Shown here: piece after piece, positions 7,967 to 57,745 of the stretch
How the letters are laid out: each line of letters begins with the position of its first letter
Position numbering within the stretch: position 1 is the first letter of the stretch
Assembly (NCBI GenBank): GCA_016869285.1
Contig: VGEN01000001.1
Coordinates: 7,201 to 71,200 of the forward strand
Source of the DNA: Alphaproteobacteria bacterium
GTDB lineage: Bacteria > Pseudomonadota > Alphaproteobacteria > SHVZ01
DNA: 64,000 nt
Direction: 5' to 3'
Made by a program: the position numbers and the translations under genes
The notes under the pieces: model-generated
What the model was told of the DNA's origin: nothing
The model's input: the letters and a program-made list of their open reading frames with translations, nothing else
Databases searched by the model: none

Positions 7967-9818
<1,852 letters not shown>

Positions 9819-54870: not shown

Positions 54871-55899
54871 TCACACCGGCGGCGGATTGCGGTCGAGGCT
54901 GGTGCGGCGCTGGTGCCAGTAGGGATAGGCGAGCGGGCGCGCGCTCACCTCGTCGAGGCGCTTGATCTGATCCGGCGTCAGCTTGAACTCGACGGCGCCG
55001 AAATTCTCCTTGAGCTGGGCTTCGGTGCGGGCGCCGACGACGACGGTCGAGACCGTCGGCCGCGACATCACCCAGTTGAGCGCGACCTGGGAGACGGTCT
55101 TGCCGGTCTCCTTGGCGATCGCCTCCAGCATGTCGACGATGTCGTAGAGCTGCTCGTCGGGGATCTGCGGGCCCATGGCGCCGATCTGGGCAACGCGGGT
55201 TCCTTCCGGCGCCTTCTGCCTGCGGTTGATCTTGCCGGTGATCTTGCCGCCGGCGAGCGGGCTCCACACCACGGCGCCGACTTTCTCGGCGATCCCAAGC
55301 GGCATCAGCTCCCATTCGTAGTCGCGGCCGATCAACGAATAGTAGACTTGGTGCGCGACATAGCGGCTCCAGCCGTAGCGGTCGGCGACGCTCAGCGACT
55401 TCATCAGGTGCCAGCCGGAGAAATTCGAGCAGCCGACATAACGGACCTTACCTGACGTCACCAGGTCGTCGAGGGCGCAGACCGTTTCCTCGATCGGCGT
55501 CTTGGCATCGAAGCCGTGCATCTGCCAGAGATCGATATGGTCGATCCTCATGCGTCTCAGGCTCGCCTCGCAGGCGGCGATCAGGTGGTGGCGCGAGGAG
55601 CCCACCTGGTTCGGGCTCGGGCCCATGCGGAAGGTCGACTTGCCCGAGATCAGCAGCCGGTTGCGCTTGCCGGCGATCGCCTGGCCCAGGATCTCCTCGG
55701 CGGCGCCGGCCGAGTAGGCATCCGCCGTGTCGAACAGGGTGACGCCGGAATCCAGGCACATGTCGATCATGCGCGTCGCCTCGGCGACGTCGGAATTGCC
55801 CCAGGCGCGGAAGAAGTCGTTGCCGCCGCCGAAGGTGACCGTGCCGAAGCTTAAGACAGGCACGCTGAAGCCCGATCCGCCGAGCAGACGATGTTCCAT
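54871..55899 (-). CDS. aldo/keto reductase
   Basis: 342 aa; AKR catalytic tetrad region (DTADAY..., ...HGFD..) and typical length. Confidence 0.85.
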   Translation of the reverse strand: MEHRLLGGSGFSVPVLSFGTVTFGGGNDFFRAWGNSDVAEATRMIDMCLDSGVTLFDTADAYSAGAAEEILGQAIAGKRNRLLISGKSTFRMGPSPNQVGSSRHHLIAACEASLRRMRIDHIDLWQMHGFDAKTPIEETVCALDDLVTSGKVRYVGCSNFSGWHLMKSLSVADRYGWSRYVAHQVYYSLIGRDYEWELMPLGIAEKVGAVVWSPLAGGKITGKINRRQKAPEGTRVAQIGAMGPQIPDEQLYDIVDMLEAIAKETGKTVSQVALNWVMSRPTVSTVVVGARTEAQLKENFGAVEFKLTPDQIKRLDEVSARPLAYPYWHQRRTSLDRNPPPV

Positions 55900-55987
55900 G
55901 GGAGGTAGTCCGTTACGAGTGAGAGGAAATAGCTTAGCCGAACGGGGGCGGAGACGGCTAACATGCTAACGTAGATCGTGGAGGCGC

Positions 55988-56374
55988 ATGGCAAGGATCC
56001 TGGTCATCGAGGACGACAACGCTCTGTGCACGGCGCTGGGCATGATGCTCACCAGGGCCGGGCATGAGCCGGTGCTGTTCGAAAGCGCCATCCCGGCGAT
56101 GGAGAGCTTCGCCTCGGACAGCGCCTTCGATCTCGTCGTCACCGACATCCTGATGCTGGAGATGGACGGCATCGACGTGATCCGAGCGTTGCGGAAGCGC
56201 GGCGACACACCGCTTATTCTCGCGATTTCCGGCGGCGCCTCGGCGCTCCACGGCGACCTCCTGAAGGCCGCGCTCAGCCTCGGCGCCCAAGGCACGCTGC
56301 TGAAACCCTTCACCAAGGACGTGTTCCTGAAGAAGGTCGCGGACCTGCTCGCCGGCCCGGCGAACAGCGCCTGA
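55988..56374 (+). CDS. single-domain response regulator (CheY-like receiver)
   Basis: 128 aa; acidic pocket (IEDD), phospho-acceptor Asp in DLVVTDILM, conserved T/S and K (LKPF). Confidence 0.8.
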   Translation: MARILVIEDDNALCTALGMMLTRAGHEPVLFESAIPAMESFASDSAFDLVVTDILMLEMDGIDVIRALRKRGDTPLILAISGGASALHGDLLKAALSLGAQGTLLKPFTKDVFLKKVADLLAGPANSA

Positions 56375-56464
56375 AGGCACCGTCGCCGGGGCGGCGGGCG
56401 CCCGGAAGGGGAAGGCGCGCCCCTGCCCTTTGCGATCTCCCCCCTGCCGCGATAGCGTCGGCGC

Positions 56465-57607
56465 ATGTCAGCGGAGACCTCGCCGTCGATCATCGCGCTC
56501 GCTAACCGCTTCGCCTACGACCCGGCCGACTCCGACGATGTGCGATCGGAAAAGAACGCGATTCTTCTGCTCGCAGGCTCCTGCTGCCTCGCCGGCCTCA
56601 TCTGGTCCTGGGTCTACCTTTCCTTCTTCGGTCCCGGCCTGACGGCAGCGCTGCCCTTCGCCTTCACAGCGATCGTCGGTCCGGCGCTGGCCGTTTCGCA
56701 TGTCACGCGCAACCATCGGATCGCGATCTACGCCCAGATCGTCTGCATCATCTACGTCACGACCCTCGTCCAGTTCAGCATCGGTGACGTGCTCGACTCC
56801 GGCTTCGTCATGGTGTGGGCGTTCCTCGGGCCGCTGGTCGCGCTGATGTTCTTCTCCGTCGGACAGGCGGCCGTCTGGTTCGCGCTCTTCCTGCTGAACG
56901 TCCTCGCCGCCGTCCTCTTCAGCGACTTCTTCGCCGCGCATGGACAGTCGGTCGTGCATGGCCAGCGGCTCGCCTTCTTCGCGATGAACCTCGGCATCTC
57001 GTCGTCGATCATCTTCGCCTTCGCCACCTACTACGTCAGGACCGCGCTGACCGAGAAGCAGAAGGCGGACCGGCTGCTGCTGAACATCCTGCCGGCGAAG
57101 ACGGCGCGAACCCTCAAAGTGCGCGAAGGCGTCATCGCCGAGGAGTTCGAGAGCGTCAGCGTGCTGTTCGCCGACATCACCGACTTCACCGAATATGCGA
57201 GCGGAAAAAAGCCGACGGAAGTGGTGTCGAAGCTGAACGAGATCTTTCATCGGTTCGATCAGCTGGCGGATCGCTACGGCCTGGAGAAGATCAAGACGAT
57301 CGGCGACGCCTACATGGCGGTCGGGGGCCTGTCGGAGCCGAGCGAACGACATTGTCATGCCATCGCGGGGATGGCGTGCGCGATGATGGAATCGATCAAG
57401 GCGGTCGATCGCGGCGGAGGCCGGACCTTCTCGATCCGCATCGGCATCCATACCGGTCCGGTGGTAGCCGGCGTCATCGGCACGAGAAAATTCGCCTACG
57501 ATCTGTGGGGTGACACGGTCAACGTCGCAAGCCGGCTCGAATCCAGCGGCGTCCCCGGACGCATCCAGGTCAGCGAGGAGGTCTACAGGCGCCTCCAGAC
57601 CGACTAA
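56465..57607 (+). CDS. membrane-anchored class III adenylate/guanylate cyclase, interrupted by an in-frame TAA 26 codons before the natural end
   Basis: 6-TM N-terminus then CHD domain (VLFADITDFT, KTIGDAYMAVGG, GIHTGPVVAGVIG, WGDTVNVASRLES); in-frame continuation 57608-57685 encodes VFEKRGTVILKGKGAIDTYFLIAPR, the conserved CHD C-terminal strand. Confidence 0.75.
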   Translation: MSAETSPSIIALANRFAYDPADSDDVRSEKNAILLLAGSCCLAGLIWSWVYLSFFGPGLTAALPFAFTAIVGPALAVSHVTRNHRIAIYAQIVCIIYVTTLVQFSIGDVLDSGFVMVWAFLGPLVALMFFSVGQAAVWFALFLLNVLAAVLFSDFFAAHGQSVVHGQRLAFFAMNLGISSSIIFAFATYYVRTALTEKQKADRLLLNILPAKTARTLKVREGVIAEEFESVSVLFADITDFTEYASGKKPTEVVSKLNEIFHRFDQLADRYGLEKIKTIGDAYMAVGGLSEPSERHCHAIAGMACAMMESIKAVDRGGGRTFSIRIGIHTGPVVAGVIGTRKFAYDLWGDTVNVASRLESSGVPGRIQVSEEVYRRLQTD

Positions 57608-57715
57608 GTGTTCGAGAAGCGAGGCACGGTAATCCTGAAAGGCAAGGGCGCGATCGACACGTACTTCCTGATCGCCCCCAGATGAGGGCCTGGCGCGCCG
57701 ACGCGGTGACCGCTT

Positions 57716-57738
57716 GACCTTCCAGTAAGTGGAAGGTC
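57716..57738. promoter_or_regulatory. CueR/HmrR (MerR-family) copper-responsive operator within copA promoter
   Basis: Perfect dyad GACCTTCCA-GTAAG-TGGAAGGTC overlapping a TTGACC -35 (57714-57719); arms ACCTTCC / GGAAGGT with 7-bp spacer match the E. coli PcopA CueR box. Confidence 0.65.
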
Positions 57739-57745
57739 CATATGA

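Follow-up and report, generated by a model that had tools for sequence, protein, structure and literature searches.

The class III adenylate cyclase gene described here is cut by a nonsense mutation: an in-frame TAA at codon 381 removes the conserved end of the cyclase homology domain. The same gene with TAC at this codon occurs alongside it in Lake Tanganyika, and TAA/TAC is a segregating nonsense polymorphism of one natural lake population. We consider it very probable that the interrupted gene is an ordinary polymorphic pseudogene, that is, a null-type allele of a membrane adenylate cyclase of ≈406 residues, with decay of the gene in progress. The gene lies in a stretch of 64,000 nucleotides, called the window below.

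A premature stop in a class III cyclase gene

The cyclase ORF comprises 380 codons and closes with GAG GAG GTC TAC AGG CGC CTC CAG ACC GAC TAA, or EEVYRRLQTD*. Past the TAA, the same frame stays open for 25 codons, VFEKRGTVILKGKGAIDTYFLIAPR, which take in the peptide GAIDTYFLIAPR, before it reaches a TGA at 57683-57685; the DNA following the stop reads GTG TTC GAG AAG CGA GGC ACG GTA ATC CTG AAA GGC AAG GGC GCG ATC GAC ACG TAC TTC CTG ATC GCC CCC AGA TGA. The features of this gene, with the evidence on which each was called, are the following.

56465..57607, plus strand: truncated allele of a membrane class III adenylate cyclase (ORF, PF00211 match, AF2 model of the intact allele, PDB relatives)
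57605..57607, plus strand: premature TAA stop at codon 381, with base 57607 polymorphic A/C (allele comparison, and a homolog column of F/Y)
57608..57685, plus strand: orphaned in-frame tail of 25 codons, VFEKRGTVILKGKGAIDTYFLIAPR, with the ancestral TGA (frame, Pfam, alignment, AF2)

The match to PF00211 assigns the product to the class III nucleotidyl cyclases. As encoded in the window, the 380-residue protein scores 197.9 bits (E = 1.5e-58; cut-off 21.9), the match extending over profile positions 3-156 of 183. When the tail is added, with an X in place of the stop, the match extends over positions 3-182 of 183 and rises to 219.3 bits, and this gain in coverage identifies the tail as the missing end of the cyclase domain. 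A complete PF00211 domain, including its last two strands, is therefore found in the intact allele and is lacking from the window allele. The original prediction that an in-frame TAA cuts the cyclase just before its conserved C terminus is confirmed by the reading frame, by the Pfam gain, and by the alignment of homologs.

For that alignment, we used the best 120 database proteins, of which 119 are non-self. Almost all of them (117 of 119) reach query position 403 or beyond, the tail aligns with the C termini of the same number (117/119), and the glycines of its KGKG motif are invariant. Orthologs that stop at the same position had been proposed as a check that could overturn the prediction; none of the 119 close homologs aligned ends where the ORF ends, and 117 of them run on to the normal terminus. 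The 380-residue architecture is absent from all 119, which excludes the idea that the family naturally has such a short form. In the column of the stop, every homolog that covers it (118/118) has an aromatic residue, Phe in 110 and Tyr in 8. The homologs more distant than the intact allele have Phe (TTC) at this codon position, and TTC is the codon in the two nearest of them (73-74% identity). Among the best 120 database proteins, the next relative is only 74% identical, and the best matches in a scan of GTDB genomes, to Hoeflea poritis and a Rhizobiaceae MAG, are only 54-55% identical. Going by these matches, GTDB contains no genome close to that of the host, which can only be described as an uncultured alphaproteobacterium.

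The AF2 model of the intact allele, made with 38 homologs (mean pLDDT 88.8), has six long helices in its N-terminal part, followed by a helical linker and a single cyclase homology domain (CHD) that starts at residue 224. DSSP places helices on the model at residues 24-55, 59-81, 85-106, 116-129, 132-159, and 165-208. This layout of six putative transmembrane helices, a linker, and a single CHD is that of the mycobacterial cyclase Cya/Rv1625c, and insertion into the membrane would be expected from it. The last two strands of the model span residues 381-391 and 395-405, with a pLDDT of 92-96 for the block. It is precisely this pair of modeled strands, with the K392-G393-K394-G395 turn that connects them, that the product loses through the stop at codon 381; in the homolog alignment, G393, G395, and L402 do not vary.

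Class III cyclases use eight key catalytic residues, namely two metal-binding Asp, a base-specifying Lys and Asp, a ribose-binding Asn, and a phosphate-binding Arg/Arg/Lys set (PMC6005667 Table 1). Seven are kept in the truncated product (D237, K277, D281, R325, D346, N353, and R357), all of them invariant or nearly so in the alignment. The remaining one is a lysine in the KGKG turn that binds phosphate, Lys1065 in AC-II C2 (PMC6005667 Table 1; PMC9223806). We set this residue at K392 from the Arg+35 spacing of RhoGC and Cya2 (PMC6005667 Table 1), RhoGC aligning with the query over equal lengths; it lies beyond the stop, and all eight residues are present in the intact allele only. The Lys/Asp pair of the sequence predicts specificity for ATP. 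Because the modeled fold loses two strands along with a catalytic lysine, the truncated product is most likely inactive or unstable, and the truncated allele, on this structural reasoning, is most likely a loss-of-function allele. The best PDB matches come from mammalian membrane adenylyl cyclases, in their C2 domains (E from 4.6e-76 to 3.2e-69), followed by the mycobacterial Cya/Rv1625c structures 7YZI, 7YZ9, and 4P2F (E about 1e-55).

Two alleles in Lake Tanganyika

We located the alleles in public assemblies by exact-protein look-ups. The exact 380-residue product is encoded on contigs of five assemblies (JGI 3300020193, JGI 3300020198, ENA ERZ27247963, Logan SRR7990526, and Logan ERR14822405), the contig in JGI 3300020193 being 99 kb long, and the 281 nt around the stop are 100% identical across all five. 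A near-identical 380-residue variant is present in JGI 3300020084, and the NCBI entry for the 380-residue protein is MBM3531453.1, from an 'Alphaproteobacteria bacterium' MAG. The TAA allele thereby stands on at least seven contigs from separate assemblies. A search with a 41-nt pattern around the stop, written with NNN at the codon, gave no match in a metagenome contig collection, which evidently lacks these contigs.

The intact allele (P0122) is a protein of 406 residues in the same 90%-identity cluster; it has Tyr at codon 381, continues into the tail, and is otherwise identical. It is encoded in JGI 3300020197, on a contig of 13.7 kb, and in Logan ERR14822406, ERR14789950, ERR14822410, and ERR14789947. 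Compared base by base, the DNA flanking the gene on these contigs is at least 99.9% identical to the window. Between the truncated and the intact gene, the sole difference is base 57607, which is A in the window and C in the intact allele, giving TAA and TAC. This single-base difference supports the nonsense mutation that had been suggested among other readings, and it corrects two particulars: the variable base had been put at 57605, whereas it is 57607, the third codon position, and the stop had been derived from GAA or CAA, whereas the intact allele of the same population has TAC (Tyr), which makes the change C to A.

Four of the assemblies come from JGI samples, each a separate cast, in the set of 24 metagenomes that Tran et al. 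2021 described from Lake Tanganyika (PMC8245535):

3300020193, Kigoma Offshore 120 m (KigOff120): truncated
3300020198, Mahale Deep Cast 65 m (MahCa65): truncated
3300020084, Kigoma Deep Cast 1200 m (KigC1200): truncated
3300020197, Kigoma Deep Cast 65 m (KigCa65): intact

The read sets behind the ENA, Logan, and JGI assemblies may overlap, so that independent observations are fewer than contigs; even then, they include four distinct JGI samples as well as several ERR runs.

The population thus contains an intact allele that is identical in all other respects, and the stop interrupts a region that is conserved in relatives, the two features by which we recognize a polymorphic pseudogene. The truncated allele in JGI 3300020084 differs from the window at two further SNPs, 56295 C to T in the upstream receiver gene and 56920 C to A in the cyclase (F162L), and the TAA allele therefore occurs on more than one background. 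Being the consensus in several samples and on slightly different backgrounds, the truncated allele is not under strong counter-selection; it could be neutral or even advantageous.

The genes on either side

The cyclase gene stands between a receiver gene and the remains of a gene for a copper pump, the latter preceded by a palindrome.

55988..56374, plus strand: stand-alone CheY-like receiver gene, 91 nt upstream of the cyclase (PF00072, E = 3.4e-17)
57716..57738, no strand assigned: perfect 9-bp palindrome GACCTTCCA-N5-TGGAAGGTC, with arms at 57716-57724 and 57730-57738, between the cyclase and copA
57746..59976, plus strand: pseudogene of a copA-like copper P-type ATPase, immediately downstream (frame analysis, 3RFU alignment)

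The receiver and the cyclase had been read as a signaling pair. They do adjoin physically, but their adjacency is not conserved: with tblastn (E <= 1e-5), a receiver match was found in the flanks of only 3 of 87 other cyclase-homolog loci, just upstream of the cyclase in two and downstream in one. The two nearest cyclase homologs (P0002 and P0005, 73-74% identity) have other neighbors, and a synteny comparison with them was abandoned, as their different surroundings offer no orthologous locus to compare.

The receiver gene is itself polymorphic. Its codon 57 (56156-56158, with the SNP at 56157) is CTG, for Leu, in the window and CCG, for Pro, in the four ERR assemblies that have an intact cyclase. 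Receivers canonically have Pro here, at D+4 (..DxxMPxMDG), as the three best PDB receivers do. Several short Logan contigs start just upstream of this SNP, no more than about 30 nt away, one at 56127 and four at 56140-56155, which is the behavior expected of a de Bruijn graph at a within-sample polymorphism; both receiver alleles may therefore coexist inside single samples. There are no contig breaks near 57607.

Three haplotypes are found as assembled: Pro57 with Tyr381 in the four ERR assemblies with an intact cyclase, Leu57 with Tyr381 in JGI 3300020197, and Leu57 with the stop in the window and in those other contigs of the truncated allele that include codon 57. The series suggests a stepwise degeneration. 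Of 10 SNPs among the compared assemblies, over the 17.5 kb or less that they cover, 8 are non-synonymous or nonsense (the two changes in JGI 3300020084 having been read by eye), a spectrum that fits young, weakly selected variation.

Damage to the copper ATPase gene is plainer. The gene leaves its frame after ..RRLSR through the loss of 1 nt at about 59783-59785, a TAG stands in the true frame at 59875-59877, and the true frame would end at a TGA at 59974-59976. Once repaired, the C-terminal part of the protein aligns end to end with residues 549-736 of Legionella CopA (3RFU; E = 7e-71). All assemblies that extend to the site share the 1-nt deletion; the TAG is polymorphic, being TGG in ENA ERZ27247963. 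Gene callers had given a copA product of 714 residues, with an out-of-frame tail. The copA gene of Escherichia coli has a programmed frameshift near its N terminus. We rejected programmed frameshifting for the present gene, where the 1-nt deletion sits in the last transmembrane helices with the TAG after it, whereas the E. coli event is N-terminal.

The palindrome, in the region 57714-57744 (cTTGACCTTCCAgtaagTGGAAGGTCcatat), overlaps a TTGACC hexamer just upstream of copA. It resembles a copper-responsive operator of the MerR/CueR type, and is a candidate operator of copA. If it is a CueR-type operator, an intact operator still stands before a dead copA gene. The palindrome was also considered as a terminator of the cyclase gene, and this was rejected. 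A scan for promoters and terminators around the cyclase gene was empty, with no terminator-like site in 55800-57900, and neither Rfam (the whole window at the gathering threshold, 55000-62500 at E <= 0.1) nor ARAGORN reported any RNA gene.

Farther downstream, between a small cytochrome c gene (59973-60416) and cox-like genes (61650 onward), ≈1.2 kb at 60416-61650 hold no convincing ORF. This interval has no gene called in public assemblies, no Rfam match, and no tRNA; it could represent one more decayed gene or else an extended regulatory region. Elsewhere in the window, a GC3-based survey finds long, dense ORFs almost everywhere, and an apparent gap at 8114-9818 is the ORF of a 618-residue ABC transporter. 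Since coding is dense and normal in the rest of the window, the decay looks local, and a genome-wide load of pseudogenes is rejected as far as the window shows.

Probable decay and its alternatives

We propose the following course of events. The gene would have encoded a six-helix membrane cyclase of class III, ≈406 residues long and working as a homodimer in the manner of Cya/Rv1625c. Where its second-last strand begins, homologs conserve an aromatic residue, which in this lineage is a Tyr encoded by TAC. A single C to A transversion at 57607 then turned TAC into TAA (Y381*), and the truncated product, folding poorly or catalytically dead, would make this a loss-of-function allele that now coexists with the intact one in the water column of Lake Tanganyika. 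The mutation would be young, given that the 25-codon tail is still undamaged, with the caveat that a tail of this length is too short to separate a young pseudogene from a tail that is still translated. The cyclase would form part of a small patch of decay, along with the adjoining copper ATPase, dead in all haplotypes seen, and the receiver, which carries P57L on the stop haplotypes. Selection on the region is probably relaxed.

This reading has to be weighed against three others. That the TAA is a sequencing or assembly error, the true base giving a sense codon in this genome too, was allowed for by the original prediction, and with a TAC allele in related assemblies, a miscall would give the same pattern. 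Yet the same TAA recurs on the seven or more contigs, produced by different pipelines (JGI, ENA megahit-style, and Logan) from different samples, among them three Lake Tanganyika casts, as well as in the MAG protein at NCBI. In short-read data, which we assume from the pipelines, a substitution error does not strike one site in sample after sample. With the TAA found repeatedly in different samples and by different pipelines, an error is excluded for practical purposes, and we give it next to no credence. Recoding, either by readthrough of the UAA or by reinitiation at the GUG of UAAGUG to yield a 25-residue peptide that complements the truncated domain, would draw on the GTG at 57608, directly after the stop, and on the tail frame, intact to the ancestral TGA. 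The stop, however, is missing from the sister haplotypes and from all relatives and is therefore not a conserved recoding site, which also speaks against the naturally split or regulated product that had been entertained. In addition, the 20 nt that precede the GTG show no Shine-Dalgarno-like sequence to the eye, and Rfam has no match near the stop. UAA is generally the least leaky stop codon in bacteria. In the window it is an ordinary stop, ending 5 of the 36 confident ORFs, and on the same count of high-confidence ORFs we rejected a reassignment of the codon. Recoding is, in our judgment, very unlikely.

Somewhat less remote, and still improbable, is a truncated protein that is functional and selected, as a dominant-negative or regulatory partner pairing with other cyclase domains or through residual activity, or else a loss of the cyclase that is adaptive in part of the stratified water column. 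Several samples, taken between 65 m and 1200 m, have the TAA allele as their consensus, on backgrounds that differ slightly, and the truncated product keeps 7 of the 8 catalytic residues and the whole membrane domain; positive support for such a role was not found. Against this stand an architecture that occurs in 0 of 119 homologs, a missing hairpin that contains invariant residues and is modeled with high confidence as the last two strands, and neighboring genes that are plainly decayed, which relaxed selection fits better than a new function. A nonsense allele kept at appreciable frequency, whether as an advantageous switch-off or dominant-negative subunit or through termination and reinitiation at UAAGUG that makes two complementing pieces, likewise seems to us a slim prospect. 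We retain the polymorphic pseudogene as the explanation of the TAA allele.

Implications and known systems

Beyond annotation, the finding has little importance. MBM3531453.1 was deposited as an ordinary 'adenylate/guanylate cyclase domain-containing protein' and is really a truncated allele of a 406-residue enzyme. The 380-residue protein should be flagged as such, and the adjoining copA as a pseudogene; both are mis-annotated as intact. As a case study, the region offers a haplotype series of three steps that segregates in one lake population, a receiver P57L followed by a cyclase Y381* beside an already dead copper pump, and this series could serve to mark strains and to gauge how fast signaling genes are lost in the wild.

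The locus resembles the segregating pseudogenes of natural bacterial populations in that the habitat still contains the intact allele beside one with a single nonsense SNP, the sequence after the stop is undegraded, and the adjoining genes are damaged as well; no feature found here is unusual for this class. Among cyclases, the closest PDB sequences are mammalian C2 domains (AC8 8BUZ, AC5 8SL3, AC9 7PD4, and AC2 1AZS_B), with which the tail shares ..F..RG...VKGKG...TYFL, the hairpin that bears Lys1065. The mammalian enzymes, however, are pseudo-heterodimers of C1 and C2 on 12 transmembrane helices, whereas the single domain found here must homodimerize. In this respect it is like Mycobacterium Cya/Rv1625c (PDB 7YZ9, 7YZI, 4P2F, and 1YK9), a membrane cyclase of six transmembrane helices with one class III domain that is active as a homodimer. 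The likeness rests on the catalytic domain and linker, aligned over query residues 196-404 (E about 1e-55) with the tail included, and on the arrangement of six N-terminal helices, helical linker, and one CHD in the AF2 model, the membrane domain here being without a Pfam match. The intact allele also has all the residues of an ATP-specific (Lys/Asp) class III enzyme. Unlike the full-length mycobacterial protein, the window allele stops 26 residues early.
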